Source: Octopus sinensis
Lineage: Eukaryota
Assembly (NCBI RefSeq): GCF_006345805.1
Contig: NC_043008.1
Span: 78,616,001 to 78,680,000, forward strand
Direction: 5' to 3'
Length of the DNA: 64,000 nucleotides
The position numbers were made by a program, and so were the translations under genes. Shown here piece after piece: positions 21,473 to 64,000 of the stretch. Position 1 is the first letter of the stretch. Every line of letters starts with the position of its first letter. The notes under the pieces are model-generated. The model did no database searches. It saw nothing but the letters and a program-made list of their open reading frames with translations, and was not told where the DNA came from.

Positions 21473-21554
21473 ATCTCTGATGAAGGAAATGTGATCACCG
21501 AAGCTGAAAAGACGTATCTACCTTTTCGCACATTCCCTGAAACAGCCGTAAGAT
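21473..21554 (+). ncRNA. Type I hammerhead ribozyme motif
   Basis: atct-CTGATGA-aggaaatgtg...cacattccct-GAAACAGCCGTA-agat; GUA site. Confidence 0.75.
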
Positions 21555-30415: not shown

Positions 30416-30427
30416 GCATGTACATAT

Positions 30428-30469
<42 letters not shown>

Positions 30470-31850: not shown

Positions 31851-32034
31851 TGGGAACTGCATTAGGTATGATTAGTTAAATTTTGGTAGTAATGACTTAT
31901 GTCCCTCTTAGCGTGAAGCATTTATGTGTAATAATGCCCTCTATACAATATATATATATACATATATATATACATATATACATATGCATATATATATATA
32001 CATATATATTTAAATATATATACATATATATATA

Positions 32035-32066
<32 letters not shown>

Positions 32067-32164
32067 CATATGCATATATATTCATATTTATATATACATA
32101 TATATGCATGTATATATATTCATATATATACATATATACAAATATAAATACATACAAATATATA

Positions 32165-32400
32165 TATACAAAAGAATGAAAGAGACCTCGATATTATGTA
32201 AACAGAAGAATTTATCTGTAAATATAATATGTGACAATTATTCGGTAGCCATGATAAAACTTTGAGTCTCGGATGTTGGGGCGGAAACCTATGCCGGCAT
32301 CTCTTCAGTTATCAGGCCATCGAAAAAAATGCTAAGAAAATGACCGTTAAACAAATGGAAATTACTGTGTGATTGACCATTATTAAGACAAAAGCGCTAT
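32165..32400 (-). mobile_element. Older relative of the PLE-2 3' terminus
   Basis: aaagagacctc.atattatgtaaa...tcggtag...gataaaact.tgagt matches 27170-27370. Confidence 0.65.
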
Positions 32401-32599
32401 TAGAATGACCGCTTAGTAAGGGGAGGTAGTAAGGGAAGGGAGTAAAAATGTTCATAGGAATCGCGTAAGCGCACATGTCCATACATACACTTGCGCGTCT
32501 GCACAACCACGTACATGTGCCTATATGTATATACTCATCCACCTTTACTTGAAACACACACACATGCTCATCCACACATTTGCTAAAAAGAATACACTT

Positions 32600-33468
32600 C
32601 TTGTAGTTCCATGTAACGTCCTATTGCCTCCTTTGCACATAAAGCTTGGACTGATGAAACAGTTTATAAAAGACACTAGGGAAGAGAAATACCAGAAGTT
32701 TTGAGTATACTGTAGAAAAATTTCCCAAAATCACACAGACAAAGTTGAAAGAGGGTATCTTTGTTGGAACCCAAATTAGAGAAGTACTCAAAGATGTCGA
32801 CTTCAAGACAACACCGGGTGAACTGAAGCTGCCTGCCTGAAATGCTTTCAATTGGACCTGTGAGAATTTCTTGGGCAACAAGAAGGCAATGGACTACAAA
32901 GCTGGCATCAAAAATCTCCTGAAATGTTATTCAGCAATGGGTTGTCAAATGTCACTGACAGTTCACTTCTTGGGCTCCCATCTGGATTTCTTCGCAGACA
33001 AACTTGGAGCAGTATCTGATAAACATGGTGAAAGATTTCACCAGGACATTAGTGCTATGGAGAAACAGTACCAAGGCTTCTAGAGTGACAGCATGCTGGC
33101 TAAACTACTACTGGACACTTTACCGTGATCAACCAGATCAGGAACACCGCAGGAAATCCAAGTCACAATGTTTCTTACGCTGTTGTTCTAACTTTGTTTT
33201 GTCTGACCCATTTTTTATGTATTTATTCTATGTAGAATAATAGTGAAGATTTTAATTCAATAAACTCATTCTACAAATATTATGTCCTTATTTATTACAT
33301 TAATGATTTCTTATATACAAAAATATAAATATTTGCATGTATCTACTGAAAAACTGATACGTGCTGCATACAAATGGAGTGAAATTTTGAAATCAGCATG
33401 AAAATTAGTCTAGAAAAGTTAGTTTGCAATCATAATGAGTACAATACATTTAGTTTTGTTGACCAGTG
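32600..33468 (+). mobile_element. Chapaev3-like (CMC) DNA transposon, 3' part
   Basis: KLKEGIFVGTQIR, FLGNKK, MSLTVHFLGSHLDFF..LGAVSDKHGERFHQDI..MEKQYQG; terminus ...gttgaccagtg (CAC/GTG type). Confidence 0.75.
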
Positions 33469-34272
33469 GGATCTTTTTCTTTTGAACGGTACTTTGTAAC
33501 ATAATTTCTAGGTAACTAAAAAGTTTTAAACTTCGTATACTGGTAGAATGTGTTTATAAAACATCATTTTTTCTTGGCTTTATTGAGAAAATTCTATGTT
33601 GCAAAATACTTTGTCTTTAATTTCGAACATTTCGGCAATTTTAACCAATCGCTGACGTCCATTTAGGTAAATAACATTGTGCATAATGAATATGTCCCTC
33701 CTTTAAGAAACCCATTGGGTTTATTTACATTTGTGAAGAAAAAAGATACCCTTCCCCCACCCTAACCCTAACTAACCCTAAATCTAAAATAGATTGAAAT
33801 GCAATAGATCGATAGTAGGGTTATAATTATGGGTGACGCTACAGAAAATGGGATTTTTTCTAGCGGTGTCAAATGAAAATGTCACCCATAATTATGGCCC
33901 TAGTATCGATCTATTGCATTTCAATCTATTTTAGATTTAAGGTTAGAGTTAGGGTTAGTTAGGGTTAGGGTTAGGGGTTGGGGAAGGGTATCTTTTTTTC
34001 TTCACAAATGTAAATAAACCCAATCTGTTTCTTAAAGGAGGGACATATTCATTATGCACAGAATGTCATTTACCTAAATGGACGTCAGAGATTGATTAAA
34101 ATTGCCGAAATGCTCGAAATTAAAGACGAAATATCTTACAACCTATAGAATTTTCTCAATAAAGCTAAGAGAATATGATGTTTTATAAACACATTCTACC
34201 AGTATACGAGTTTAAAACTTTTTAGTTACCTAGAAATTATGTTACAAAGTGCCGTTCAAAAGGAAAAGATCC
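33469..34272. mobile_element. Fold-back MITE, ~370-bp TIRs, probable 8-bp TSD, internal TTAGGG repeats
   Basis: Termini ggatctttt...aaaagatcc; flanks gaccagtg and aaccagtg; (CCCTAA)-like at ~33760-33781 and (TTAGGG)-like at ~33943-33977. Confidence 0.85.
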
Positions 34273-34280
34273 AACCAGTG

Positions 34281-35743
34281 TAATTAAACAATTATCAGTG
34301 TACCCTTTACATGGTGTCTTGCACGAGTACATCCTATGCGCCATTAAACGAGAATGCATTTTTCGTGGGTAGACAATTTGGCATCTACTTTCTGCATGTA
34401 AGGAAACCACTTTTTGGCTTTCCTCTTATATTTGAATATAATTTGCAGTCCTTGAACGTTTTTACGCATGCTGACCACTAGTATAAATAGTTATTTTTTT
34501 AAATAATAATTTTTACCCTTAGTACTTATTTTTTAAATATTTTAGTTCTTGAGTTGGGTAAGCCACTGCTGAATTTTATTCACTACTTATTTATTCTGGC
34601 TTGGCACGGTGGTTGAAAACATTTGAATTGAACACATGATGTATAATGGTAGAAATTTATATGCACGTGTGTCATTTCACAGAAAGGTTATATATTCGAG
34701 TTCTATTATGTGTTCCCAGTGGATTCCACTGAAGATCCACAGATAATTGTTTAATTATTGATGGTGAAACTTCGAAGTATGGAATTGACTGGACCTTTTA
34801 AAACTTTTCATAGTCTCTTGCACGAGTACATCCAACTCGCCGTTAAATGAGAATGTATTTTTCATGGGTAGACGATTTGGCATCTACTTTCTGCATGTAA
34901 GGAATTCACTTAGTTGCTTTCCTCTTATATTTGAATATAATTTGCAGTCCTTGGACGTTTTTTTATGCATGCTGGCTACTGATATAAATTGTTATTTTTT
35001 AATAATTTTTACCCTTAGTAATTATATGTAAATACATATATATAAGTACCACACAGCATTATCTACACACCCACATATAATCTTCAGCAGCGTCATCACA
35101 CATACCACTATATGAGCAGCCACACACTGTTTAACATAGTACACACACTACACACCATCATGCTCACACACACACCCACATAAGCACATAATACCTGAAC
35201 AAAGACAATATAAACTCTCTCACCCACACAAGCACATAATTCCTGAACGCAGGCTATATATACATACACAGGCAACACACATTAACATATGCAACATACA
35301 TAGACAAAAATAACTTTCGCCCACATACATACACTATAGACATGCACACTCTTTGGTCACAGATTCACACACTCACACACCACATGAAAAAGCATACATC
35401 AACTGCTACACGCAACACACACGTTACACACTCACACATGTTGGAGTCACTCAGCTTACATATTTGTATTTACATATAATTACTAAGGGTAAAAATAACA
35501 ATTTATATCAGTGGCCAGCATGCATAAAAAAACGTCCAAGGACTGCAAATTATATTCAAATATAAGAGGAAAGCCACTAAGTGATTTCCTTACATGCAGG
35601 AAGTAGATGGCAAATTGTCTACCCACGAAAAATGCATTCTCATTTAACGGCGTGTTGGATGTATTCATGCAAGAGACTATGAAAAGATATAAAAGGCCTA
35701 GTCAATTCCATACTTCGAAGTTTCACCATTAATAATTAAACAA
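34281..35743 (+). mobile_element. Retrozyme-like ~500-nt unit with partial tandem repeat and an inverted partner
   Basis: ~34317-34525 is repeated at ~34816-35020; ~35460-35743 is the reverse complement of ~34746-35035. Confidence 0.7.
34723..34785 (+). ncRNA. Type I hammerhead ribozyme, intact core
   Basis: attcca-CTGAAGA-tcca...tggt-GAAACTTCGAAGTA-tggaat. Perfect palindromic stem III ACTTCGAAGT, GUA site. Confidence 0.85.
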
Positions 35744-36069
35744 TACACACACACACACCCTCTCTTGCTGGGATCACTAGCACTACTATTATCGCTCTTT
35801 CATTCAATCTGTTTGTTTATTATCATCTCCCTTTCTTTCAACCTCTTTTTTTCCAATCTTTCTCCATGTTTGACTGCTGAACTCCACACATTTTTTTTTC
35901 CATTCTCTCTGATTATCTTCTCTTATTCCTTTCTGTTGAAGAGTGTAGGCTCAAAATGTAAAAGACTATTTCATTTTTCCTAAACTTCAAACTAATACAT
36001 TTACTTTTGTTCATACACCCATTTTCGACTTTTGTTTTTCTATAAATTTCAACTATATATATATATATA

Positions 36070-37130
36070 TATTGGGTCATCCTATAAATAATGCGTTTTT
36101 TTTTACTTCTTTTATTATTCAAAATTAAAGTTCTTTTTTAATCTAAAATATACTTTCCTTCATTTTCTACAATGCTCTTGCAACTATCTCATAGACATGC
36201 AAGGCAGGCCCCTCTTCCAAAATTCACTTGTCCATGGTGAAAAATACTCCCCCAGTACTGGTCTACAGAATTCATATTTTTTCCGTCCAAATGATTTTGA
36301 AGACTGTGGAATAAATGATAATCAGATGGACCAATGTCCGCCGAATATGTTGGGTGGGGTATCGTTTCCCATACAAACTGCTCCAGCCTTTGGAATGTCA
36401 TCCTCGCTGTATATAGCCGAGTATTATCCCAATGGAAGAACAACTTTCATCTTGAAACCAAAGATGGCCGTTTTTCTTCTAGCGCTGACTTAAGTCGATG
36501 AAGCTGCTCATTGTTATCATTTGGCTTGGGTTTAAAAATTTTAAGTGGACTAAACCTTTCATATCCCACCAAACAGATAACAACACCTTATGTGGGTGAA
36601 GACCTTCTTTAGCCTGGGGCACCAGTGTTTCTACCCACTGTCTTTGACACTTGACATTTTTATAGAGAACCTATTTCTCATCACCAATCACTCTTCAGTC
36701 CAAAAAAGGTTCATTCATGAGGCATGACAGCAAAGAAGAGCACACATTCACTCTCTGCACGTGATTGGACTTGGAAAGTTTGTGAGGCATTGCACATGCA
36801 TCCATGTGCTGCTATCTGTTGGCATGCTACAGAACTAGTCCAGGAACTTTTTGAAATATATAGAATTAAAGGAAAGACTTTAAATGGATCAGTATGAATA
36901 GAAATAGAGTGAAAGTAGTGATGCTGATTAAGAGTATCAGCAATAAAGCTGAGAAACAACTGAGTATAAACATACTTATACACAACCAGACGACTTTAAC
37001 ATATGTAATATAGTAAAGTGAAAACCTTTGATTAAATGAGATTACCCATGTAATTAGAAAATAGAATTTCCTTTTGGAGGCATTGTGAATCTAAAAACAG
37101 TAACAAGAAAATAAACAACCAGCTAATAAG
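36070..37130 (-). mobile_element. Decayed mariner (DD34D) transposon
   Basis: FLD*RVIGDEK*VLY, FFHWDNTRLYTA, PHPTYSADIGPSDYHLF (YSPDLAPSD-like). Confidence 0.8.
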
Positions 37131-38070
37131 ATTAAAACTTGTCTGTTACTAGTCGATTGGGTGCTGTTTTTAGATATAAAAAAACTTTGTTATGATTGAT
37201 AACTTCAGTTAAGTGATAACTTTTAATTTACAATAATTATATCTGTGGGACCTTGCCATATGCATATTTAATATGCAGAATACTCTCCTGAATATGCAGA
37301 ATACTCTCCTAATATGCAGTATACTCTCTGTCCTATTGTTTATATCATATTTCATTGACATTTATCATATCCACACCTGAATGTAATTATATAATACAAG
37401 AAACTGACCAAAGTTTTTCATTTCTTAATGATTGATTCAAATAGACTCTATCAATATCATATATACAATGTTTTCTGGTAAACATCAATAATAAATGTTT
37501 TGTACCATTTTACAGAGGGGCTTAATGAAATACAACATTTAGATTCCACATTTAGAAAGAAGCAATTCATAAGTTAGAGCTTATGCCTCTGCTATTTAAA
37601 CTGCTTTTCCAAAGTAATTGTTCAAGTTTACTCCAAATCAGTACTTCACTAACACTTACAACTACTGAATAAAGTATTTTTACCTCCTAGAGTTAGAATT
37701 TCATTTCTTTTATATCAACGATGCCTCTTAAAAGAAGAATCATTCATAGAAGATTATCCAAGAAGTCTCTTCCTTAAAAACTTCATATTCCATTACATTG
37801 CAACAAATGAGGATTTTGTTTTCTACAATAGTTTGATAGAATAGTAGTTTCCATTACATCACATTTATATATTCTGTTTAACAATTATCTCAAGTTATAA
37901 CATCCCCCTTTTTAGCATTATGTGCAAAACAATGTTCTGTTCATTAATTGAGAAAGGCTATTCTCAGCTTAGTTTATTGCTGGGTTTAGAAAGACTGTAT
38001 TATAGCATATATTCTTGAATATAATATCAACCCTTGTATAACATACACTCATAGTAGTACTTCTACTTAC

Positions 38071-38240
38071 TCTTAATGTTTCTATAGTTTTCATTAGATT
38101 TTCATTGGTAAATGTTATCAAAGTAATAAAATTAAGTATGTTTTGGTAAGAAGTTAGATATTCCCACCAATGTTTATCAACAACCTGTGGCGCTGCGCGA
38201 TAGTGTTCTGAATAAGGAAGCCCTTGATAGAAATCAATAC
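38071..38240 (-). CDS. Beta-lactamase-family serine hydrolase, internal exon
   Basis: ttctttgtag acceptor and gtaagt donor; 170 nt, phase 1/0. Reads (G)IDFYQGLPYSEHYRAAPQVVDKHWWEYLTSYQNILNFITLITFTNENLMKTIETLR. Confidence 0.88.
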
Positions 38241-38454
38241 CTACAAAGAAGTAGAAATATAAATATAGTTAGTATTACAGCTGGGAATTGTAAAGAAATA
38301 GAATGACAGAAGCTTAACTAAGAATTCACTTGTGTCACTGTAAGTTAAAATAGATCATTTGAAAGAAGAATCTAGGAAGTGATAAATCGTAATATTTTTA
38401 CCCCAGTAAAAGGAACAGAAATGGAATGAGAGAAGGAAATAATTGGTGAGTGAA

Positions 38455-39465
38455 CGCTTTTGCAGTTTGGTCAAGATGTTTTTCTTGCAGTCTAGAGATT
38501 AGAACTTCAGCTGTATTCTTGGAAAGACCCAAATCACACACTAAATCATTCAGTTTTGTTTGGTTAAACTGTTGAGGAGTTGATTTTTCAGTATCATAAT
38601 TAAACAATACACACACACACACCCTCTCTTGCTGGGATCACTAGCACTACTATTATCGCTCTTTCATTCAATCTGTTTGTTTATTATCATCTCCCTTTCT
38701 TTCAACCTCTTTTTTTCCAATCTTTCTCCATGTTTGACTGCTGAACTCCACACATTTTGGAATTCTGAAGTAATTTCTTCATTATCGTTCTCATACTCTT
38801 GTTCACTAGCTTTGTCTTTGGAAGAAACAAACCCAAGGAAAACTGGAATCATGAGTGTCACACAGTGCATAATAGGTCTAATTGCTGAAGGAATATTGGG
38901 ATAGATATTTTACACCTATTTTTTTGCCTTCTTTGTTGACCATACAAAAATAGCGGTCACTTGTGTGGTCCCTCAGCTCTTGTCAAACCATAGAAACTCC
39001 AAACAGCAGGCCCTTTCATTTTCATTTTGTCCAGCCATGAAGCATTTCATCACAGTTATGACACATGAGGGGCCCATTTTTTGTCTTGGTCACCTAGGGG
39101 AATTCCAAAATAGGCTTCATAAGCCCATCTCACAAACAATGTGATATTGTTCTTTTGACAAATAAGCGTGAAGGAACCACAGACATAGCAGAAGCCATCA
39201 AGGTTATTCACACATCTATGTCAACTTGAAGAAGCCATGATCAGAGCTGAAAAAACACAATTGTCAATTTTTTGTAAGAATGATATATGTATCTCTCTAT
39301 GTCAAATTTAACAATAAATATATAAAAAGTTAATCTTCAAATTGCAAGAAAACTAGAGCACAGAGAGCAAAACTGATTACAGATTTGAAATTAGCACAAA
39401 AAAGACAGAATCAGTAAAAAAAATCTCATACAACAGAAATTTTTTTTTAAATTGTTGTCCAATGT
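38455..39465 (-). mobile_element. Chapaev3-like transposon, 5' part, decayed
   Basis: CVNNLDGFCYVCG, YFGIPLGDQDKKWAPHVC, YPNIPSAIRP, FNQTKLNDLVCDLGLSK; terminus cattggacaacaa. Confidence 0.75.
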
Positions 39466-39519
39466 TATTTTTAAAACTGTTACTTGTTTTTTTAAACAAT
39501 GGTGGCTCAGTAAGCAGTA

Positions 39520-40330
39520 ACCCCATAGAGAAAGCCTTCACCTTCACTGCCTACTTTGCCACACTACACAAACTTAGCTAATCTTCACCTTCTACTCCTA
39601 TAGGCTCCCAACCTCACACACACACTAAGTACAAAAATATCTCTGGCTGCTTCAAACAAAGCCATTAGCCCTGACAATGTTCCTTTCATATAAACATTAC
39701 ACTTCAACATTGCAACTTAGAACTTACTACTATACTCATCAAACTTTAATCTCTCACACTCTACATGGATATACCTTGACATTCGGAAGCATACTTCATT
39801 GTGTCCCATTTCAAAGAAAGACAATCCTTTCAACCCAACCAAAGCTTTCATTTCTAACATCTCTAATGGAAACAGCCATTAATCACAATACTCTCTAAAC
39901 ACCTTGAATCACTCTTTCCTCAGTGACACCCTGGAACAGTGCCAGAACTACTAGAGACCAACTCTCTTATGTTATTTACCAGTGGGTTCTCACTTTAGAG
40001 AAATTCAATGAAAGTGACATAATTCTAGACACCAGCAAAAACCTTCAACAATATATGGCATACAAGTTTACAAACAAAATTTCCTGTCTATGGGCTTCAT
40101 CCATCTCTCATCCTTTGTATCAGAAGCTTCCTATCAAGTCACACCTTTGTAGCATGTGTAGATGGAGCCCTTTTTCTCCCACTCTCAATCAGTTCTGGTG
40201 CTCTCTGTGGCTTAGTTTTGTCTCCAATTCTCTTCCTTCTATACATCAATTACTTCTATATCTTACAACTCCCACTCTTATGCAGACGATATTACCCTAC
40301 ATTCATCCCCAACTTTCCTAAGCTATTTAT
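39520..40330 (+). mobile_element. Highly decayed LINE RT remnant (Jockey/CR1-like)
   Basis: SISSGALCGLVLSPILFLLYIN and YADD in shifted frames. Confidence 0.5.
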
Positions 40331-40870
40331 CATTCACATGTAACATAGACATTATCATCACTTTTCCATGCCGGTATAAGTCAGAGAGAATATGCTGATT
40401 CAGATTTTCCATAACCAGATGCTCTTCCTGTCACAAACCCTCAGTAAGGTAATATTTTTCCATGATTGGATATGTTTTCATGGAATACTGGAAATGAAGG
40501 ACACTGCTTGTAAGACAGTGGAACTTGCTTACAAATACTACACGATGTTCATGCAAGGGGACAGTAACACACGTATGTGCGTACATACGTATGTACGAAA
40601 ATCCTGCATGTATAGCATTCAGAATGCTCACAGTGGAATCTTCAAATGTTGGATCTTACTATCACCAAAGGTCTCTTCTAGGCCACAAGGTATTTCAACC
40701 TTCAACTACTGTTGATACTCTACAAGGCCTACAATGGACTACTGTGTTCACATCTGTAATGCTACTGCTATTACACAACACAGGTATCCTGGACTGCATC
40801 CAGAGTACTTGACTGAGTGGCATTTAGTCACTGAGAAGCATACTTCAGCTTCTTGTCCACAGGCACGCTA

Positions 40871-40931
<61 letters not shown>

Positions 40932-40974
40932 TTCAGTGTTATAATGGCTTCTGTTTCTCAGATCTTGTTGATTT

Positions 40975-41335
40975 CCACCACTGAATGCTAGACCAAGCCA
41001 TGAAAGTTACTGAGAGGGTTATAGCTAAATTGATTAGAAATAGAATTAAACTAGAAGAGATGCAGTTTGGTTTTGTACTTGGAAAGAGAACTACAGATGC
41101 CATTGTACTTAGCCTTCACCGACTTGGAGAAAACTTTCAACAGAGTTCCCCTCCCTGTTATATGGTGGTCTCTAAGAACATTAGGAGTAGAGGAGTGGCT
41201 TGTTAGAGCTGTACAAGCTATGTACAGTGGTGCTGTCAGTAAGGTGAGAGTTTGTCATGAATACAGTGATGAATTTAGTGTACAGGTAGGGGTTCATCAG
41301 GGCTCAGTTCTCAGCCCACTCTTATTCATTATAGT
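40975..41335 (+). mobile_element. RTE LINE fragment related to the element at 58680-61330
   Basis: MKVTERVIA..EMQFGFV, DLEKTFNRVP, VGVHQGSVLSPLLF. Confidence 0.85.
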
Positions 41336-41559
41336 AGAAAAGTATATTATCCAATGTTTCTTTCCTTTTGAAAATGATAGGATGTGATTTGAGGAATAGT
41401 GGACTGCTTTTTCTGGTGAGTTGAATGGCAATGGCTCATGCCCCATTACATTTCTAAACACAGGTGAAATAAACATTGGAGATGCTTTGTTCCATGCAGA
41501 AACTGAAGGAGCTATTCAGAGGTATTGCAAACTCTTCTAAATCCATCACAATGTTGAAA

Positions 41560-41960
41560 ATCCTGTATAAGTAGGTGTCTCAGGATCAAAAGCATTTCAC
41601 TCCTTAGCTTTTGCCTGAGTGGAGCAACAAAGACTCAATTAGTGTTCACTTGTGAAAAGGTTCCACCTGTAGTCTCTTGTCAACAACTGCCACAATGAGC
41701 TCACCTCAGCTGTTATGCCTATCTCTATGGTGGCTTTCTTCAGTTGTCTGGGTCCCAGACCAATCTTCTGCAAGAAATAGCATGCAGATCTAACTGGAAA
41801 GCTGTGGTAGCTGGTTCCAATAGGAAATGAAATTACATGTCATCTCTTGACAAGGGTCTTGATGATAAAATCCTGATATTAGATTTTCTTTTGCTGGTCA
41901 AAAATTTCGAATCTGTCCTCCCAGGGTACTGTAAGTTCAATTGTGCTGACTGTTTATGAG
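41560..41960 (-). mobile_element. Remnant of an RLE-type non-LTR retrotransposon (R2/HERO-like) 3' end
   Basis: Minus strand at ~41950-41900 reads IELTVPWEDRFE, typical of the restriction-like endonuclease domain. Confidence 0.55.
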
Positions 41961-42248
41961 TGCAAAAACAATCATCACAATTGAACAGTACAGTCTACAT
42001 TTCATTGTAGACTCTAAGCTCTCACCTTCATACCTGAAAGTCATGCCATACAGTAACTACTAAGAATTTTTTAAATATTAAAGCACAATATCATAAATTC
42101 ATAGCTGGGAGAAATGTGATGGTTACATTCTTAACATTCTCAATCAAACAGCAGTGTAAATGAAATGGCTTTAGAAAAAATCCATAAATGGCTGGTAATT
42201 TGCTCTTTTTTTACTGTTATGGCCATATTTGTCGGTAATTATACTTAC

Positions 42249-42371
42249 CAAAAGGCATCATTATTTCTTCTTGATAGATTTGTTCTATTGAACGTTTCAG
42301 GGGATCTACTTTTGTTAAAAGTACATCAACATAAAGGCCAAAAGTAAAGGCATGATAACCTGATTGTGTAC
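42249..42371 (-). CDS. Beta-lactamase-family serine hydrolase, internal exon with catalytic Tyr motif
   Basis: attttgtag acceptor and gtaagt donor; 123 nt, phase 1/1. Reads (G)TQSGYHAFTFGLYVDVLLTKVDPLKRSIEQIYQEEIMMPF, matching the PGTxxGYHxxTFG motif. Confidence 0.92.
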
Positions 42372-43064
42372 CTACAAAATACAAAAACAAAGAAAAATAT
42401 ATTTACATAAAATAATCATACTTATTTCTGATATGAACTCTGTATTCCTGATGGTGTTTAATGAAATTAAAAGAAACTAGTAGTGACTAGACCCAGTGAA
42501 AGAATTATATCTTTGATGTCTGCGCCATTTAACTAGTATATATCTACATTCATTATGCACATATTTTCCCCCCAAAGGAACTTTTTGTTTCCCTCTGTCA
42601 TTTTCTAATAAAAGCTTAGCTTAGGTACATCAAACAACATACCTATAATATGAAATATATAGACACCATCAATATTTAAGAGTGTAAGAAAGTTCAACAT
42701 GAAAGACTCGAAATGATTGATAACTTCTGATGTTCTAAAAGTTATTTCAGAATTCATTTTATTTCAAAATATAATTAAATTTAGTCACACATTCAATTTG
42801 TTTATTATGCTTATTAAAAAGTAACTTTTGTCATATCAACTTTTAATCTTTGAATAGAAATGCATAAATGAATGTATTGTTAGAAAATATATTTAAGCAA
42901 TACGTTCATTGATGAGAAGTGGAGAGGAATTAATAAGAATTTGTTGGGTTCATTCTGATTAAGAACGCTACTTATTAGTTTAAAGTTTCAATAATTTATA
43001 TTAATTTTTCAGTATAAAAAAAAACCATGTAACTGTATGTTTTCCTTAAATTAAGTATACTTAC

Positions 43065-43170
43065 CAGGAATCCAATTAGGTTTTTGGGCAGCTAGGATGG
43101 AAATAAAACGTTCATAATCAGAAGAAATCAAACTTAATTCCAATGGCTTATCAAAAGCATTCAGACCAGC
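43065..43170 (-). CDS. Beta-lactamase-family serine hydrolase, internal exon
   Basis: ctttttacag acceptor and gtaagt donor; 106 nt, phase 0/1. Reads AGLNAFDKPLELSLISSDYERFISILAAQKPNWIP(G). Confidence 0.9.
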
Positions 43171-44171
43171 CTGTAAAAAGTAAGAATTAATTAGAACAAA
43201 ATGAATTCTTCTACAAAAAGAAATTTCCATGAAATCTAAACAACTGGTTTGGATATCAAAGTGGAAGCCTGTTTCCATTCAACTTTATAAAATGAAAACA
43301 ATGGCAATCAATTGTACAGAAATAAATAACATAAAGCTAATGTTCATATAACAATGTCTGTGAAGTCTGTGTCTACAAGCTGACACACATTGATTAATAT
43401 ATGTCCACCATTAGTTATAAAACAAAAGACACAAATAGCAAGTATACTTCCTGTTAGCACATGGAACTAACTAACAAACTAAACCTCACTTCCCTAATAT
43501 AAATATACAGTAATCCCTTGACTATCATAGGTGTTACATTCCCAAATCCCCTGTGGTAGGTGAAAATCCATAAAGTACAAATAGTACTGTTATTTTTATA
43601 ATTTGTATATATTTATTTTATCATAAATGCAAAACAACACCATGGAAGAATTGACGTAAGCTTAAATAATGAACCACGATAGGATTACTATATATCTAAA
43701 ATGTTTTCCAACACACACAAAAGAAATGTCTTTGAAAACATAAGATATCAAAATGTGCCATCTTTGGTACTCAATTTGTGGTACAGTTTCCTTGAAAGTC
43801 TGTGCTAATTTCTACTAGATCTATACAAACTTCAATGTTTTTGGGGAGATTTTTAATTACTTAAAAATCAGTAGATGGTCAATCAATCTGAAACTTTTAC
43901 TCCAAACTAGCTTTTAGCAATCTATTAGTCAAATTGTCTGTTTTTCCTTTCTCTTCTTGCTTAAAATTTCAAGTAAGATAAGCAAACAGAGGTAATTTGC
44001 AAAGAAAATGAAACCTAGCTTAAAAGTTCAGATACAAATATGTAAACATGCTACCACCATGTGAAGAATATGAAACCTTGTAGCCAACTTAAGCTGTTGA
44101 AACAACTTTCTTTTAATATCGGAAAACATTTCTGAAAGTAAACTTCTCTCTCTAAATTTTGTATTTCAAAT

Positions 44172-47100
44172 AGTCGTGGCAAGAGTCACGACACCCCCTG
44201 TAAGAATAGACTTGACCAAAAGACTATAAACAGTGGCGGTGTCAGTGAGCAGGAGAGTAGGCATTAATCACAGGAAGTCGTAAAGTGTTATTTTGGTAAT
44301 TTGTCAGAATATCGTTTGTTGGTTCGTGTATTGTTCATGGAGAGTTTGTTGGATTGTTGTACTGTTGTAATCCTGCTTCGTTATATTTTTCATATATGGA
44401 AAGCGGACGCTAAATGATGATGATGATGATGATGATGATGTTACTACACGGTTATAGTGTAAACAAGTATTGTCATAAATAGTGGCAATACAACAATAAT
44501 TGGTGACAAGTAAGTATGAAACAATATTGGCAACAAGGATTCGAAGCTCACGCAGGTCAGTTAATAAATTTTTGTGATACAAATTTGTTAATGATGGAAG
44601 ACCTATTAGCTTCTATAATACTGTTACACCAACAACTGCAACAGTTAATGAAGCTGTATCTTAAGAAATCCAGAAACATTATAAGTTTGTTTTCGCCAGA
44701 CTACATATCAAACTCTATAACAGAATCCCAGAGGAGGGTATAACATTTGCAACATACTTTAGAAGGTACAAAGACATCTTCAGAGAAGATTGCAAGTCAT
44801 AGACAAACAATGGAAAAGTAAGACTATTAATACATAAATCAGCACCAGCTAAACATGAAAAATATTGTAATTTCATACTACCGAAAAAAAACAAGTGAAA
44901 TTTGTTTCCAGAAAACAGTCAAACCACTATCAAAAATATTCAGCGGTAAGAGTTCCTTATTTAACACTTGATGGGAGTGTTGGAATCTAGTTAAAAGAGA
45001 GAGGATGAAGACTTTGTCACATATGCCAGGACCGTACATGTGCGAAAGATCTAAAGTGAAGGAACTAACTCCTGATATATTTAAGTGCCTCACTTTTGTA
45101 CAAGGGCTTACGGCAAACAAAGATGCAGAGATATATGCAAGAATTCTCATAAAACTTGAACAAGCAGACCAAAGTTTAACCCTGTAGGCAGTTGCCAAGG
45201 AGTGTCAAAGAATGGTAAGTTTACATTAGGAGTAAAGAAAATTGAAGAGAAGGTGTTCTCACTAGTACAAGCATGCTAACCGAGAAGGTATAAACAAAAA
45301 AATGTTAAGACCAAACCCATGCTACAGATGTGGAGCCCTACATTTCAGGAAGGATTATCCTTTCAAAACGCAAAAATGTTACAGCTGCCAAAAAGTAGGA
45401 CACAAGAGCTCACATTTCAAAGCAAAGTTAGTAAGGTCGAACATAAAAAAATTCTAAAGTTTTCTCAACAATAAGTAGTAGCGACACCAAAAAGAGGAAA
45501 TTTGTACATGTAAATGTAAACAAAGTGAATATTAAGTTACAACTAGATACTGGTAGCGACATCTCGATTATTAATACTGACATGTGGATAAGAATTGGGA
45601 AACCAATATTAAGTAAAACATCAAAAATTGCCACTGCACTTCGTAGGTGAAATATGGAGTGATATCACATTTCGGGAGAAAAACCTGTTGAACAAAAGTT
45701 TTTGTGGTAAAAAATGCATCCAATCTGTTCAGTATGAACTAGTTGAAATTGTTTGACTTATGGGACCTCTCCATAAGTCTGTTGTGTAAAAATATAAATA
45801 GCTGTCCCACCAGTGAAAATAATTCAGCAGTTGAATTGAAGAAAAAATTTTAAAACTTGTTTCCTGAACTGCTGTCAGATAAATTATATCTCTAAGACTG
45901 AGGCCTGTTTTCAAATAAAGGAAAATGTTGTAACTGTATCCAAACCTGGTAGAAAGGTACCATTTGCTGTGATGAAGCAGACATAGGAAGAATTAGACAG
46001 ACTGAAGAAATTATGAAATATTCAAAAGTAGAGTGGGCAGCACCAACTGTGTGCATTAAAAAAATAACAAAATCAGGGTGTATACCAATGCCTCCCCCAA
46101 CTAACATATTTGACATTACATGCTTTTCTTGGCCTAGCGAACTATTATGAAAATTACATCCAAAGCATGTATGAATTGAGAGCTCCACTTAATAATTTGC
46201 TAAAGAAAGACACCAAATGGAATTGTTCAAATAAGGGAATCTCGTGATCAGCATATCGAACATGTGAAGTGTGTTTTTCAAAAAATTAGAGATTACATTT
46301 TCACACTCATTCAGGAGAAATATGAATTCTTTTTGCCTAAAATTAGATATTTAGTACAAATTATAGATAAAAATGGATGATGACGTGACCCGTCAAGAGC
46401 AGACGCAATTAAAAAGATGCCTCCCCCAACTAACATATTTGACATTACATGTTTTTCTTGGCCTAGCGAACTATTATGAAAATTACATACAAAGCATGTA
46501 TGAATTGAGAGCTCCACTTAATAATTTGCTAAAGAAAGACACCAAATGGAATTGTTCAAATAATTGTCAAAAGGCATTTCTGGATATTAAAAAATATTAA
46601 TTTTGGATTTGTCGCTGACTCATTTTGCTCCTGTTGTAGCTTCTGAATATGGTATAGGAGCAATTTTACTACACAAATATAAAGATGGTAATATGAAGAT
46701 GGTGGTTCATGCCTCACGTGCTCTAAGTGCAGCAGAAAAAAAAACTACAGTCAGATAGAGAAAGAAGCTCTAGTGATTATTTTTGCCATGAAGAAATTTC
46801 AGATTTCTCCATGGTAGAAGTTTTTGGCTTCAGATGGACCACCAACCGTTACTATCAATTTTTGGGTCAAAGAAAGGAATTCCTACCCGTACAGCAAAGA
46901 GATTACAATGCTGGGGTACAATATTGTTAAGTTATAATTTTAAGAAGGAGTACATTCGTTCTAAGAAAATTGGTCATGTGGATTGTTTATCTAGACTAAT
47001 TCTGAAGAATGCAGAACCACTGGAAGATAGGATGATCACCACATTACAATCAGAAAAAGAGATTGAAAGGTAATCTCATAATCAGCATATCAAACATGAG

Positions 47101-52583: not shown

Positions 52584-53748
52584 TTAGTGTGAATTTCTCT
52601 GTATTATTGAGTTCGGATAGTTGAGTCTGGGTTTGTACTTTTCAATGAAGAATGTTTCCTTATTTAGTCTAATTTGTGATGATGATCCGAAAGCACATTG
52701 GTAAAATGGAAAGATTAAAAATTGTGGTTGTAGTTGCTTTGCGCATTTCTCAATGTGTTCACTAAAAGGTATCATTCTATATTCTGGGAATGCAATCTGT
52801 TGTCGATGCAGTGTGCATCTACGTCTGAGTGATAGTCCCGTGGACCCCACGTAGTCTTGGTGGCAGCCCGAGCATTTAATGACATAAATTATGTTTTCAG
52901 AGGCACAAGTAAAGTTAGATTTGATCTTGAATTTCTGTCCCTCTTTAAAGAAGAATTCTGATCCTTCCAATAGGTTAGGACATGTTGCACAGTTCGATCT
53001 ACCACATTTTTTTACTTTTGCATCCGTAATTTTAGAAGACAATTTTGCCTTTGTGAGAATCTTTTTAAGTGATTTAGGCTGTTTGTAGCTTTTAATGATT
53101 TGGTGTATGTTTAGAATTTCCTTTAATTTGGGGTTTTTATGAAGTATTGGTAAATTCTGGGTGATGATGGTGAAAGCTTCTTTGTTTCTGGGGTTGTATG
53201 TAGATATGTAAGGTAGTATTTTCGGGGAAGGTGTGTTGTTGTGTTGAACTTTTCTTAAAGTTTCTATGTTGATTTCTGTTGCACGTCTGATCCCATCCTC
53301 TATGAGTTGAGTTGGGTAATGTCTGTCAATTAAGGTGTTTTTGAGTTCTTGCAGTCTGAAGTTCCTGGTGTTTTGTTCTGACACTATTGTGCATATCCTT
53401 CTTGCAAGGTTGAAGGGGATGTTTGTTTTAGTGTGTCTTGGGTGGCATGAACTAAAAAGAAGGTATTGTTTGGCGTCTGTGGCTTTGTAGAAAATGTCTG
53501 TTTCTATTTTAAGGTTAATTTTTTTAATTAGTATATCCAAGAACGGGAGTTCCTTTTGGTTGTATTCCATTGTGAACTGTATATTTGGGTTTATGCTGTT
53601 CAATAGGTTTTTAAATTTTAAGAGTTTATCTGTGTTTTCATTCCAGAGAATAAAACAATCGTCCAAGAATCGTTTCCAGTTCTCTTTTATGTATTGAGAG
53701 AGGGGGTTTCCAAAGATTGATAAGGATTCCTGGTAAATGGTTATTTCC
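52584..53748 (-). CDS. PLE RT C-terminus + GIY-YIG endonuclease, uninterrupted but 5'-truncated (left arm)
   Basis: WKRFLDDCF, LPFLDILI, YLLFSSCHP, CGRSNCATC, IIYVIKCSGCHQDYVGST, EHIEKC. The N-terminal MIRIP is read from the opposite arm. Confidence 0.85.
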
Positions 53749-53750
53749 AT

Positions 53751-54897
53751 AGGAATCCTTATCAATCTTTGGAAACCCCCTCTCTCAATACATAAAAGAG
53801 AACTGGAAACGATTCTTGGACGATTGTTTTATTCTCTGGAATGAAAACACAGATAAACTCTTAAAATTTAAAAACCTATTGAACAGCATAAACCCAAATA
53901 TACAGTTCACAATGGAATACAACCAAAAGGAACTCCCGTTCTTGGATATACTAATTAAAAAAATTAACCTTAAAATAGAAACAGACATTTTCTACAAAGC
54001 CACAGACGCCAAACAATACCTTCTTTTTAGTTCATGCCACCCAAGACACACTAAAACAAACATCCCCTTCAACTTGCAAGAAGGATATGCACAATAGTGT
54101 CAGAACAAAACACCAGGAACTTCAGACTGCAAGAACTCAAAAACACCTTAATTGACAGACATTACCCAACTCAACTCATAGAGGATGGGATCAGACGTGC
54201 AACAGAAATCAACATAGAAACTTTAAGAAAAGTTCAACACAACAACACACCTTCCCCGAAAATACTACCTTACATATCTACATACAACCCCAGAAACAAA
54301 GAAGCTTTCACCATCATCACCCAGAATTTACCAATACTTCATAAAAACCCCAAATTAAAGGAAATTCTAAACATACACCAAATCATTAAAAGCTACAAAC
54401 AGCCTAAATCACTTAAAAAGATTCTCACAAAGGCAAAATTGTCTTCTAAAATTACGGATGCAAAAGTAAAAAAATGTGGTAGATCGAACTGTGCAACATG
54501 TCCTAACCTATTGGAAGGATCAGAATTCTTCTTTAAAGAGGGACAGAAATTCAAGATCAAATCTAACTTTACTTGTGCCTCTGAAAACATAATTTATGTC
54601 ATTAAATGCTCGGGCTGCCACCAAGACTACGTGGGGTCCACGGGACTATCACTCAGACGTAGATGCACACTGCATCAACAACAGATTGCATTCCCAGAAT
54701 ATAGAATGATACCTTTTAGTGAACACATTGAGAAATGCGCAAAGCAACTACAACCACAATTTTTAATCTTTCCATTTTACCAATGTGCTTTCGGATCATC
54801 ATCACAAATTAGACTAAATAAGGAAACATTCTTCATTGAAAAGTACAAACCCAGACTCAACTATCCGAACTCAATAATACAGAGAATTCACACTAAA
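53751..54897 (+). pseudogene. Mirror copy of the PLE-3 ORF with two 1-nt deletions
   Basis: Same peptide split into ORFs 53816-54097 and 54097-55005; frameshifts near 54073 and 54885. Confidence 0.8.
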
Positions 54898-58679: not shown

Positions 58680-60754
58680 TTACCACCAAGGTTACGTGGT
58701 GGTGGAACAGTGTTGTAGACAGGGCTATTAGAGAAAAGAGACAGACTTGGAAACACTGGAAGAATGGTGGTAGCAGGGAATTGTATCAGACTGCTAAAAG
58801 GGAAGCTAGGAGACAGGTGTATTTAGCCAGAGGGGAAGCAGATAAGAAAAAATTTGCCAATGTTCTGCGCCATGAGGACCAAAGACTGGTGTTTCGCGTT
58901 GCAAGACAGTGTGTGAGAGAGAATTGTGATGTGGTAGGAGAGAAGTGTGCTCGCATGGAAGATGGTTCCCTTGCGCTAAATGAGGATGCAAAGAGAGAGG
59001 TTTGGAGACGCCACTATGAAAGGTTGCTGAATAAAGAAAATGAATGGGATAAAGAGAGTCTGCCGAATGTCAACCCAACAGAGGGACCAGCTATCAGAGT
59101 TGATAGTTCCTTGGTAGTTAAGGCAATTAGAAGCATGAAGACAGGGAAAGCCCCAGGCCCATCAAGTATCACTGCAGAGATGTTCAAAATATCTGGTAGT
59201 GTCGGCTATAGCCTAGTCACCCGTATAGTTAATCAGGTGATACACAAAGAAGTCATACCCAATGACTGGTGTAGCAGCATAATAGTCAACTGCTACAAAG
59301 GTAAAGGTGACGCCCTAGATACAAATAATTACAGAGGTATCAAGCTGTTGGATCAGGTGATGAAGGTTACAGAGAGGATCATAGCCCAACTAATTAGAGA
59401 GAGAGTTAGTTTAGATGAGATGCAGTTTGGGTTCGTGCCAGGGAAAAGTACCACTGATGCTATATTCCTGGTAAGGCAGCTGCAGGAGAAATACCTAGCC
59501 AAAGATAAGCTCCTGTACCTGGCTTTTGTTGACATGGAGAAAGCCTTCGACAGGGTCCCCCAATCCCTCATCTGGTGGTCAATGAGGAAACTAGGGATAG
59601 ATGAATGGTTAGTGAGAGCTGTGCGAGCCATGTACAGGGACGCTGCTAGTAAGGTGAGGGTTGGAAACGAGTACAGTGAAGAATTCTGGGTAGAGGTTGG
59701 GGTCCACCAAGGCTCAGTCCTCAGCCCCCTCCTATTTATCATAGTCCTCCAGGCAATAACAGAGGAATTCAAGACAGGATGCCCCTGGGAGCTCCTCTAT
59801 GCTGATGACCTTGCTCTAATTGCTGAGTCACTATCAGAACTGGAGGAGAAGTTTCAGGTGTGGAAGCAAGGTTTAGAATCGAAGGGCCTTAGAGTCAATC
59901 TAGCTAAAACCAAAGTCGTAATAAGTAGGAAGGTAGACAAATCACAAACGCCTTCAGGTAGATGGCTCTGCTCAATCTGTAGAAAAGGTGTAGGTAGAAA
60001 CTCTATAAGATGCACCAAGTGTAAGCTATGGACACATAAGAGGTGCAGCAATGTCAAAGGAAGGCTAACTAGGAAGATGGTTTTTGTATGTGGCAAATGC
60101 TCGGGAGCATTAACCTCTGAAAATCTGCAGAAAACAACTTCCGTCACTTTCCAGGGGGAAAAACTAGAAGTAGTTGATAGCTTCCGTTATCTTGGTGACC
60201 AAGTCAGTTGTTGGGGTGGGTGTGCTGAAAGTGTAACTGCTAGAGTAAGAATAGCCTGGGCAAAGTTTAGGGAGCTCTTACCTCTGCTGGTGACTAAAGG
60301 CCTCTCGCTCAGAGTAAAAGGCAGACTGTATGATGCATGTGTACGAACAGCCATGCTACATGGCAGTGAAACATGGGCCGTGACTGCTGAGGACATGCGT
60401 AAGCTCACGAGAAATGAAGCCAGTATGCTCCGATGGATGTGTAATGTCAGTGTGCATGCTCGACAGAGCGTTAGTACCCTGAGAGAAATGTTGGACCTAA
60501 AGAGCATCAGTTGTGGTGTGCAAGAGAGACGATTGCGCTGGTATGGTCATGTGGCGAGAATGGATGAAGATAGGTGTGTGAAAAAGTGCCAATCCCTAGC
60601 AGTGGAGGGAACCCGTGGAAGAGGTAGACCCAGGAAAACTTGGGACGAGGTGGTGAAGCACGACCATCGAACTTTAGGTCTCACTGAGGAAATGACCAGC
60701 GACCGAGACCTTTGGAAATATGCTGTGCGTGAAAAGACCAGGCAGGACAAGTAA
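58680..60754 (+). CDS. RTE reverse transcriptase (partial) with internal PHD-like C4HC3 finger
   Basis: NYRGIKLL, MQFGFVPGKST, FVDMEKAFDRV, GVHQGSVLSPLLF, LYADD, CSIC..CTKC..HKRC..CGKC, FRYLG, RRLRWYGHV, RGRPRKTW. The listed start at 58655 lies in the flanking PLE arm. Confidence 0.9.
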
Positions 60755-61330
60755 GTCCAGCCCACTTATGCATGCCTTTCCTCCCTTGGACACACAAAGA
60801 CCTGTTGAGGCAAGCAAAGTCAATATCGAACCTCATCCGACGACAGGTCTTGCTTGTGAAGACCTGTTGGGGCAAGTGAAATCGGAATCGAAATTGAACC
60901 AATCCTATGACTGGCACCCGGCAGATGCCAGGACCCCTGGACTGGAGATATGTAAAAAGCACTATCCGAATCGTGGCCGATGCCAGCACCGCCTTGACTG
61001 GCTTCCATGTCGGTGGCACGTAAAAACCATCATCCGCATCGTGGCCGAAGCCAGTGCCGCCTCGACTGGCTTCCGTGCAGGTGGCACGTAAAATGCACCA
61101 ATCCGACCGTGGCCAATGCCAGCCTCGCCTGGCACCAGTGCAGGTGGCATGTAAAAAGCACCCACTACACTCACGGAGTGGTTGGCGTTAGGAAGGGCAT
61201 CCAGCTGTAGAAACATTGCCAGATAAGACCGGAGCCTGGTGCAGCCTTCTGGCTTCCCAGATCCCCGGTCGAACCGTCCACCCATGCTAGTATGGAGATC
61301 AGACATTAAATGATGATGATGATGATGATG
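58680..61330 (+). mobile_element. Young 5'-truncated RTE-clade LINE
   Basis: Uninterrupted RT ORF, 3' UTR with ~68-nt tandem units (~60952-61160), (GAT)n tail; no APE domain retained. Confidence 0.92.
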
Positions 61331-61613
61331 GAAATGAAATGTAAGAAGACAGATAAGAGTTGAATTTTATAGGTTGGTAGAAACTATTTATAGGTACTAA
61401 ATGTATGCTTTTGCCAATGTTTGTAACAATAAACGATAAATTATCAACAATTAATTATCAGTTCACACCGAATTAGAATATAGTTTTCAAGCACCAAAAA
61501 CCTTTCATAAATCATCTCATCACATAACAATAAGTTGTTAAATACAAATCCACTTAATGAAATTAATAACATTGATATTAACATTAACCATTCTTTGAAC
61601 AATAATAACAATA

Positions 61614-62037
61614 CAGTTCTATATTTAAAAGATCAGGAATTATGTACATTATTTACATTATTTATAGTTGACGGATATTTCTCTTCATCTTGTTTGTTGT
61701 TAACACAATGTTTCAGCTGATATACCCTCCAGCCTTCATCAGGTGTTTTGGGAAAATTTTGAACCTGGGTTCTCATTCCTATGGTATTTTTTGATGTTAT
61801 TGTTATTATTATTATTATATTATTATTATTATTAAGGTCACTGCCTAGAATTGAACTCAGAATCTTGGGGTTAGTAGCCCGTACTCTTAACCACTACACC
61901 ATATGCCCAAGAGAGCCCAAGTTCAAAATTTCCCCAAGACACCTGATGAAGGCTGGAAGATATATCAGCTGAAACGTTGTGTTAACAACAAACAAGATGA
62001 GGACAAATATCCATCAAAAATAAATAATGTAAATAAT
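61614..62037 (-). mobile_element. tRNA-headed SINE with HHR tail and inverted 3'-end copy
   Basis: tRNA-like head 61908-61836 (TGGTGTAGTGG A box, GAGTTCAATTC B box), (TAA)n, HHR at 61746-61703. 61911-62037 is the reverse complement of 61648-61774. Confidence 0.75.
61939..61982 (+). ncRNA. Minimal type I HHR
   Basis: acac-CTGATGA-aggctg...cagct-GAAACGTT-gtgt; palindromic AACGTT stem III. Confidence 0.8.
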
Positions 62038-63164
62038 AACGATATTAGTATTTCTGATATAAATTTCAATCACATTCATTTCCTTAGCAGTAGTTCTAAG
62101 ACTAGAAACTCTATTTATCAATGTAAAATTACTTCCCGTTCTGATGTCTTTTTTTTACATAGGTAAAACATCTCAGTTGTCCAAAACAATATCTAACCAT
62201 TACTCTACATTTAGACATATCAATAAATGCAGCAATACTGGGCTTAGTAAATTAATTTGGTCTCTTAAGGAACATAATAAACAACTTGATTTGGAATGGA
62301 ATATTCTATCTAGATCCTTTCTGTATGATAAAGGTAAATCTTTTTGTCCGCTCTGTAACGAAGAACAGTATCTCATTTTGTTCTCAGAGAATTCTCTTGT
62401 AAACATGTTTAAAGAACATGTTTATTATTGCAAACATTGACAAAAACATACCTTTAGTTCCTATAAGTAATTTCTATCAAGCTATAAAATTTGACTTTTA
62501 TCTGTCTTCTTACATTTTATTTCCACTACATATATCTATTTACATGCTTTATTTCCACTCATCTTTATTTCCACTCATCTATCGCATTATATTTATCCAC
62601 TCTTAATTTTCCATTAATTTCTTTCTTTCTCCTCTTTTTCTTTCTCCAAATTGCCTTTGACATTAAATCTATTAACAGTTTTTTAAGAAATAACTGGCCA
62701 ATGTTCCCTTCATCATATACGCGGTAATCACATTCGGTTAAAATGGTTTATTGATGTGTTTTGTTTCTCTTTTTTCCCTGATCAGATGATTACATTGTTT
62801 TACATCATTTTATTCCCTCAGGAATAATACCAAGGTTTTCTTCGAAACATGTGTGGGAAGAATAAAAATTTGAATAGCACCTATGTTTAACTCCATTTTT
62901 AGATTTGTGTGTGTGTGTGGTGTCCCAGCATGGCCACAGCCTTAGCACTAAAATGCTTAAAAGACTATTGATCTGGGTAGTGTGCATAATATAATCGTTC
63001 TGGTTAGTATGTATGTATATATATATATGATACACATTATGTACAAGACATCACCAACAAGTGAAAAATACGTAAACACACACACATATACACATGCACA
63101 CATATATGTAGATAGACATACACATTTAGGGAACTATGGTTAACAATCAATTTCTCTAACACCT

Positions 63165-64000
63165 TCATCATCATCATCATTTAACGTCTGTTGTCCATGC
63201 TGACAAGGGTTGGACAGTTGACCAGGCTTGCACGCTGAAAGGCTGAACCAGACTCCAGTCTGATTTGGTGTGGTTTTCTACAATTCGATGCCCTTCCTAA
63301 TGCCAACCACTCTGAGGGTGTAATGGGTGCTTTACATACCACCAGCATGGGTACCATTTGCATAACACTGGTATCTGCCATGACTGCAATTTTGCACAGT
63401 TTCATGGCTCTACTTCTCAAGCACAACATAATGCCAAAGGTCTTGATCATTGCCTCCATGGGGCCCAACACTCGAAAGGAACTCAGCCCCTTTGCCTCCG
63501 TGAGGTCCAATGTGTGAAAGGAACTCAGCCACTTTACCTCTGTGAGGCCCAATGCTCAAACGGTGCTCTTAACATGCCACCAGCATGGGTGCCAGTTACG
63601 TGACATCAACATCAGTCATGACTATGCTTTCACTTGGCTTAACAGGTCTTCTCAAGCACAGTATATCACCAAAGGTTTGAGCCATTAGTTATTGCTTCTG
63701 TGAGGGTCAAAGTTCAAAGATCATGCTTCACCACTTCATCCCATGCCTTCCTGGGTTTACTTTACCTCTACCACAGGTTCCCTCCACAGTTAGAGATCGG
63801 CATTTCTTTACACAGCTATCCTTGTCCATATGTATTGCATGACCATACCAACATAGTTGTCTCTCTTGCACACCACATCTGATGCCTCTTATGCCTAATT
63901 TTTCCTCTCAAGATGCTTATACTCTGTTGAACATGCACACTAACATTGCACATCAAGCGAAGCATACTGACTTTATTTCTTTCAAGTCTAACCTTGTTTT
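63165..64000 (-). mobile_element. Older RTE LINE 3' part, continuing beyond the window
   Basis: (cat)n tail, gatgcccttcctaatgccaacc and RT C-terminal similarity to 60400-60750. Confidence 0.8.

Follow-up and report, generated by a model that had tools for sequence, protein, structure and literature searches.

A tRNA-like head and a minimal hammerhead ribozyme in the probable pseudo-LTR of a Penelope/Poseidon-type element of Octopus sinensis

A short repeat that begins with a tRNA-like head and carries a hammerhead ribozyme (HHR) may be a SINE that has borrowed the end of a PLE, or it may be a part of the PLE itself. This question is raised by a unit of ~300 nt on the minus strand (61908-61614) of the window, the stretch of 64,000 nucleotides of Octopus sinensis contig NC_043008.1 that was analyzed, in which a tRNA-like head is followed by a (TAA)n linker, a minimal HHR, and an A-rich tail. 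The initial annotation considered the unit to be a tRNA-derived SINE provided with a PLE-type tail. We instead regard it, with a probability of about 0.7, as the pseudo-LTR (pLTR) of a PLE of the Penelope/Poseidon type that includes the head, the short copies being likely products of the PLE RT made from an RNA that likely starts at the head.

Architecture of the insertion and its genomic family

The head (61835-61908, minus strand) forms the 5' edge of the unit and contains an A box (61901-61891) and a B box (61856-61848), a putative Pol III-type promoter. It is followed by the linker (61797-61834, minus strand), which varies in length and is a frequent target of later insertions, and by the HHR of the long arm (61703-61746, minus strand); the last 34 nt (61614-61647, minus strand) are present on the long end of the insertion only, that end lying at 61614, and correspond to the PLE "tail" described in PMC3846280, PMC8557442, and PMC11167929. 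A PLE ORF begins within the unit (61614-61776, minus strand; ATG at 61776-61774) in a frame that runs through the HHR and tail and, in the window copy, meets a stop after 48 codons. Abutting the 5' end of the unit is an inverted short arm of 127 nt (61911-62037, plus strand), 91% complementary to the unit in the long arm, which represents a second, 5'-truncated copy of the pLTR (unit positions ~140-266) and terminates at the short end. The two ends of the insert are unequal by 34 nt. On either side of it lies a copy of a 13-bp TSD that contains a single mismatch: the right copy (61601-61613, minus strand) pairs with the left copy (62044-62032, minus strand), where there is a 6-nt microhomology overlap with the short end. 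The head with its A and B boxes, the linker, the minimal HHR, and the inverted 127-bp arm with an intact HHR core are all present as first described, and the absence of a simple-repeat or poly(A) 3' end was borne out. The insert is itself surrounded by an inverted pair of another repeat family (60410-61434 and 62420-63980), which has internal repeats of 42 and 63-68 nt and a (GAT)n end.

The core (CUGANGA/GAAA), stems I and II, and palindromic helix III of a minimal type I HHR, a motif described in PMC4209133, can all be recognized in the unit. The HHR of the inverted arm (61939-61982, plus strand) is a predicted ribozyme that folds as stem I and stem II with the core intact (z −2.1), and in the long arm an A for G at 61709 destroys the helix-III palindrome. 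CpG decay of this kind is present in 36 of 78 arms, and the core is intact in 15 of the 78. No pile-up of ends at the HHR cut site was seen among DNA copies or in RNA reads, and a dimeric HHR is not the minimum structure in a fold of two copies. HHR patterns with an alternative stem II or stem I yielded only mutant copies of the unit or unrelated pLTRs. Hammerhead-like cores also occur on the minus strand at positions 5707 and 13573 of the window, the first being part of a T/C-rich family of pLTRs with a (TA)n end that is also found in loci L110 and L243; at L110 3330-3750, a different PLE pLTR is arranged head-to-head as a near-perfect palindrome, in which 33 bp separate the two HHRs.

The A and B boxes of the window copy are in exact tRNA register, and the family majority matches 15 of 15 invariant or semi-invariant tRNA positions that were checked. 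The box pair occurs once in the window, whereas 30 shuffled windows contain it 0.0 times on average and 5000 shuffles of the head not once, and the head is 64-68% similar over 56-58 nt to the heads of other tRNA-like repeats. It should be noted that the description "tRNA-like" is founded on the boxes and their register, not on a cloverleaf, because ARAGORN found no tRNA in the window or in any of 35 family loci (0/35) and Rfam recovered neither tRNA nor hammerhead. The predicted fold of the head (z +1.3) does not support a cloverleaf, and a phage blast of the head gave only one weak tRNA match (E 0.05).

A DNA search of the genome returned 5,006 candidates, and all 40 of those scored were near full length; an exact HHR pattern gave 3,994 matches, compared with 0 for a control. 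Exact counts of 20-mers, each representing one oligomer whose conservation may differ, were 863 for the PLE 3' UTR, 4,938 for the head, 10,499 for the tail, and 103 for the ORF just past the long end, with 0 for reversed controls. After correction for decay, the size of the family is estimated roughly at 30,000-45,000 arms. Two sets of loci were studied: a position-ordered set of 83 found with HHR patterns (90 minus 3 overlapping loci and 4 unrelated HHRs), and a similarity-picked set of 58 (after 2 duplicates were dropped), 29 of which were retrieved by a query that included the long end. The head and the HHR tail are found together in thousands of copies and not at one locus only, the head being present in 54 and an inverted arm in 51 of the 83 position-ordered loci. 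Two-ended insertions have one long and one short end in 36 of 43 position-ordered and 40 of 43 similarity-picked cases, and have a TSD (of at least 10 bp in the position-ordered set) in 26 of 43 (mismatched pairs, 11/172) and 30 of 43 (mismatched controls, 6/172), respectively. The 3' ends of the unit are bimodal (positions 257-275 and 297-300), the arms are arranged head-to-head, the long and short ends lie ~34 nt apart, and the TSDs are 10-15 bp in length. The inverted pLTR, one-sided tail of 30-40 bp, junction palindromes, and TSDs constitute the PLE signature described in PMC3846280 and PMC8557442, and the PLE-type fold-back proposed for the window copy is a property of the family, which is real, high-copy, and PLE-made. 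The initial annotation had counted TSDs as a sign against a link with PLEs; the 13-bp TSD is present, but TSDs are expected for PLEs (PMC3846280) and therefore do not refute that link.

Among the first 47 exact head matches on contig C1, 16 have an exact tail match within 400 bp (counted by eye), about the proportion expected from full linkage at the observed level of decay; a large family of heads alone is therefore not apparent. Copies occur singly or head-to-head, the close same-strand pairs examined (L141-L143) being separate insertions; no tandem arrays of HHR units were met among them, and membership of the non-LTR retrozymes was rejected on this basis. At ~7% non-CpG divergence and with 551 aa as the longest open frame seen, the family looks inactive now. 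The (TAA)n linker hosts or adjoins at least three other repeat families that split the unit (L063, L070, L087, L132, L139, L144, L150, and L156) and looks like an insertion hotspot.

The autonomous partner

A short RT-motif pattern gave 777 matches in about four families, from which 10 copies were fetched. In all three copies of the family with WLRYVDDT in its RT (L261, L262, and L263), the whole unit, including the head, lies directly 3' of the ORF; no match to the unit was listed for the seven copies of three other RT families. In copy L272, a 551-aa RT and GIY-YIG frame is followed by a 3' UTR, head, linker, HHR, and short end, and an inverted arm with the long end is located on the opposite side of the element. 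The unit was found behind an RT/GIY-YIG ORF in 4 of the 4 copies whose 3' end was read, and in 9 of the 83 position-ordered loci the sequence continues into the 3' part of the PLE. On the 5' side of the ORF, the HHR and tail run in frame into the coding sequence in all three near-full-length copies (L273, L274, and L275). A match to the tail, which the initial annotation had suggested comparing with autonomous PLEs, was found in the same genome: over 146 nt, L273 and the unit are 97% identical. In L274, no more than the terminal 23 nt of the unit precede the ORF. The frame opens within the unit, at the ATG at window position 61776, and reads through the ribozyme, the unit "tail" being the first ~54 codons of the PLE ORF. 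A homolog, P0003, has the same N terminus (PDxG..PKRCVNN), and the N terminus of an 847-aa homolog from another source (56% identical) matches over the ribozyme-coding stretch. Reads and contigs from three other organisms match both the ORF and the unit; therefore the arrangement is not private to this assembly. In the three near-full-length copies, the upstream pLTR is truncated and headless, with starts at unit positions 155, 278, and 160, so that a head directly upstream of a full ORF was seen in 0 of 3 and a head-driven mRNA can be pieced together only by overlap.

The 551-aa frame of L272 and L273 are 38-68% identical to proteins that mostly have PF00078 (RVT_1) and PF26215. The decayed L272 frame itself gave no Pfam family match, and a PDB sequence search gave only weak matches to group II intron RTs. 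The RT of the partner carries W.RYVDD, and its GIY-YIG-type region aligns with those of two Neptune ORFs that match PF01541. A Zn-finger-like linker between RT and EN, a feature of Neptune and Nematis according to PMC8557442, is present in L037 and L101 but absent in the partner and its seven relatives. Judged by architecture, the partner would therefore be of the Penelope/Poseidon type, a single-ORF EN+ PLE. Neptune-type PLEs are abundant in the genome, but two families of them were rejected as partners: nothing is shared with the unit tail by 50 GIY-YIG loci (30 and a further 20, which include a wider cut of L039) or by 20 loci from a second family. An apparent tandem in L271 proved to be an LTR-type insert (L271 184-3005) within a copy of the partner, with two ~630-bp repeats and ~180 bp of duplicated target.

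Other PLEs were encountered in the same searches. L264-L270 represent three more PLE families, with YSRYVDDI; long frames are found in one of them (L269 and L270), which has no T4 run in 1.15 kb. In the window, 52620-54861 and 9735-11435 are pieces of Neptune-type PLE ORFs, the first a head-to-head inverted pair, and 20429-21371 (minus strand), with an HHR-like core at 21477 (plus strand), is a decayed relative of the second Neptune-type family. For that family, 150 matches were scored, with frames of up to ~1000 aa, and in these relatives of the window copy the 3' region is CA-rich and very long and contains a GC-rich island. At L010 1089-1500, an internally deleted unit, with the tail and ~120 nt of ORF start joined directly to the head, is possibly a short non-autonomous tandem form.

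Comparison of 37 ORF-linked with 296 unlinked arms shows an identical majority base at 219 of 219 positions. The non-CpG divergence is 7.2% in the ORF-linked and 7.1% in the position-ordered unlinked arms (p = 0.86), and three positions differ in minor-allele frequency (p < 0.01). The location of the unit 3' of the ORF, the continuation of its HHR and tail in the ORF frame, and the equal divergence and majority bases therefore point to a PLE pseudo-LTR as opposed to a tail-borrowing SINE. An A/B-box head, as in tRNA-derived SINEs, is present; the 3' end is the start of the PLE ORF, with two fixed ends, rather than one shared with a LINE or an A-rich or simple-repeat end, and the comparison of arms reveals no lineage distinct from the partner. 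The proposal of a PLE-type tail on a SINE thus holds in that a PLE, not a LINE, moves the unit, but not in its division of the unit, since the head, linker, HHR, and tail all appear to be the PLE's own pLTR.

The start of the template RNA and alternative readings

The 5' starts of 65 head-bearing arms are at −8 to +6 in 38, inside the head in 19, at −15 in 1, and further into the PLE (beyond −20) in 7. This pile-up at tRNA +1 suggests that a Pol III-type start is located there. The 20-mer counts decrease 5.7-fold over ~60 nt from the head (4,938) to the sequence upstream (863), compared with 2.1-fold across the ~185 nt that separate the tail from the head; the decrease is 100-fold once the long end has been passed (103). 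When 121 head-edge arms were sorted into regex classes, 57 were found to abut an inverted head and 12 to run on into the PLE, the remaining 52 being joined to other sequence or the flank. Inverted heads join at a GCCC-AC-GGGC palindrome, in which the head-to-head junctions have a fixed two-base spacer; the spacer is the PLE sequence just upstream of the head, and therefore the templates reached a few bases past tRNA +1. Three features would be consistent with a Pol III-type start at the head edge: the presence of the boxes, the place at which the step falls, and a unit majority free of T4 runs. The depletion of T-runs in the ORF is not significant by piece (0 versus 1.7 and 2 versus 3.6 expected), another PLE family also having 0, and of the two T4 runs in L272, one is copy-specific. 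In a related organism, RNA reads cover both strands equally, with no pile-up of starts or ends.

The step at the head could have a different origin if the short copies were plain 5'-truncated products of long Pol II transcripts of the PLE and the head a silent captured SINE in the 3' UTR. The step would then arise from fold-back or template switching at the GCCC-AC-GGGC palindrome, which might be enough to halt the RT or make it change template. Both self-priming and palindromes at the junctions of inverted copies have been reported for PLEs (PMC3846280), and 57 of the 121 head-edge arms meet an inverted head at exactly this palindrome. The mapped promoter of Drosophila virilis Penelope is internal and LINE-like (PMC2377424), which differs from the head-edge start proposed here, and conservation is not clearly higher in the boxes than elsewhere in the head (73 changes in 1293 and 54 in 1204, compared with 503 in 7515). 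However, the 52 arms that join other sequence or flank have no inverted head, which is more readily explained by an RNA start than by a hairpin alone. A palindrome of 4 bp makes a weak stop, and the step (5.7-fold over ~60 nt versus 2.1-fold over ~185 nt) is located exactly where a tRNA-type promoter would start transcription. We consider the Pol II explanation unlikely. Variants common to both arms, examined as a sign of whether a single hairpin RNA or two RNAs had been copied, amounted to 8 of 197 within loci compared with 2.4% across loci (p = 0.077), a difference that does not discriminate between the two.

If the short copies are PLE products of a head-started RNA, their formation can be modeled on the anole Poseidon element PAc, for which in vitro studies show that reverse transcription is initiated internally, at two neighboring sites near the beginning of the ORF, that both target strands are cut and extended, that HHR cleavage is dispensable, and that the tail lies between the two sites (PMC11167929). 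The A and B boxes would set a Pol III start a few bases upstream of tRNA +1, within the palindrome, and the PLE protein would nick AT-rich DNA and prime cDNA synthesis internally at two sites ~30-40 nt apart, on both strands. The long and short ends of the octopus insertions would result from such two-site internal priming. Priming at the first tail in the RNA would allow only ~300 nt to be copied before the RNA start is reached, producing the SINE-like unit, and priming at the downstream tail would give ORF-bearing, 5'-truncated copies; the two arms may then join by microhomology, often via the palindrome. A lone minimal HHR would remain uncut, with retention of the head. The thousands of short copies would be accounted for by transcription that likely begins at the tRNA-like head, and one element likely yields both the long copies and the SINE-like family. 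A more far-reaching proposal, that the autonomous PLE took up a tRNA-derived Pol III promoter and that a single transcript serves as mRNA, as template for ORF copies, and as source of the SINE-like family, is tentative, and we are inclined to doubt it.

The unit could also be an independent non-autonomous SINE with master copies of its own that has nothing but its 3' part in common with the PLE and depends on it for movement; PLEs can mobilize pLTR-flanked sequence in trans (PMC3846280). The short copies outnumber the ORF-linked ones by ~6 to 1 and start at tRNA +1, the unit majority is without a run of four T, and any solo copy with intact boxes and tail could act as a source, all of which would suit a SINE. 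Against this, the head itself belongs to the autonomous element, and the fixed spacer at the junctions copies the bases upstream of the head in the PLE; since there is no diagnostic base and no offset in sequence or age between short and ORF-linked copies, an independent SINE lineage is not supported and appears improbable. A LINE-mobilized SINE or a fold-back DNA element (MITE) that resembles a PLE end by chance would be in keeping with the variable-length TSDs and tRNA head typical of SINEs or the long inverted arms of fold-back elements, but is refuted, to the point of being hardly credible, by the uninterrupted passage from unit to PLE ORF on either side, the 3' part being 97% identical to and in frame with the ORF start, and by a 3' end without simple repeat or poly(A) and ends unequal by ~34 nt.

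Relation to known elements

In the literature covered, as far as its available parts extend, the partners of SINEs are LINEs, and Pol III promoters in terminal repeats are restricted to non-autonomous LTR elements. Neither a PLE with a tRNA-derived pLTR nor a tRNA SINE mobilized by a PLE was found in that literature, which consisted of full texts, mostly non-subscription; Repbase, Dfam, and SINEBase were outside the search, and the unit may already be named there as a SINE or a Penelope element, and the supplements of PMC4209133 and PMC8557442 may list the family. The combination of a Pol III promoter with a hammerhead (SMalpha), non-autonomous derivatives of PLEs, and Pol III heads in the repeats of TRIMp3 are already known from the available parts of the reports cited below, and the element that is new relative to this literature is the tRNA head in the pLTR of an autonomous PLE. 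Such a head, with SINE-like copies made by internal priming of the PLE, would represent a third route. If the autonomous PLE is indeed driven by Pol III, this would be a SINE born inside its own partner. Repeat libraries would call the unit a tRNA SINE and miss its identity as a Penelope end. The tens of thousands of two-ended insertions with sharp ends would provide support on a genome scale for the two-site, two-strand priming of PAc, and they make the formation of PLE inverted ends testable.

With the Penelope/Poseidon PLEs described in the available portions of PMC3846280, PMC11167929, and PMC8557442 (D. virilis Penelope, anole PAc, and Adineta Pen2/Pen3), the octopus element has in common an RT with a C-terminal GIY-YIG and no Neptune linker, a pLTR that holds the ORF start and a minimal HHR, an optional tail of 30-40 nt at one end, and head-to-head inverted arms with a junction palindrome and TSDs. 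Unlike these elements, its pLTR has at its start a tRNA-derived head containing A and B boxes, at the edge of which most copies end; the TSDs are mostly 10-15 bp as compared with 8-10 bp in the Adineta examples.

The schistosome repeats SMalpha and Sjalpha similarly combine a Pol III-type promoter with a type I hammerhead in a short repeat (PMC6765202, PMC8490949). They form tandem arrays, from which cleavage is said to free monomers, and no autonomous partner is named in the available text of these reports, whereas the octopus copies are dispersed fold-backs in which the HHR is minimal and in a coding frame and the partner carries the whole unit. Animal non-LTR retrozymes are short HHR repeats related to PLE pLTRs and are proposed to be non-autonomous PLE derivatives (bioRxiv 10.64898/2026.07.22.740005); they occur as tandem arrays, and no tRNA head is described in the accessible part of that preprint, whereas the octopus unit appears to be the pLTR itself, with no arrays seen. 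The TRIMp3 elements Cassandra, Helenus, and Ajax likewise have a Pol III promoter derived from a small RNA in the terminal repeat, for which an origin by SINE insertion into the repeat has been proposed. According to the available sections of PMC10886601, these are non-autonomous LTR elements whose partners are argued not to share the promoter, whereas in the octopus the autonomous PLE carries it. The octopus SINEs OK, OR1, and OR2 (Ohshima and Okada 1994, as cited in PMC4758252 and PMC10886601) are likewise tRNA-derived short repeats; OR2 is listed in PMC4758252 as a CORE SINE.
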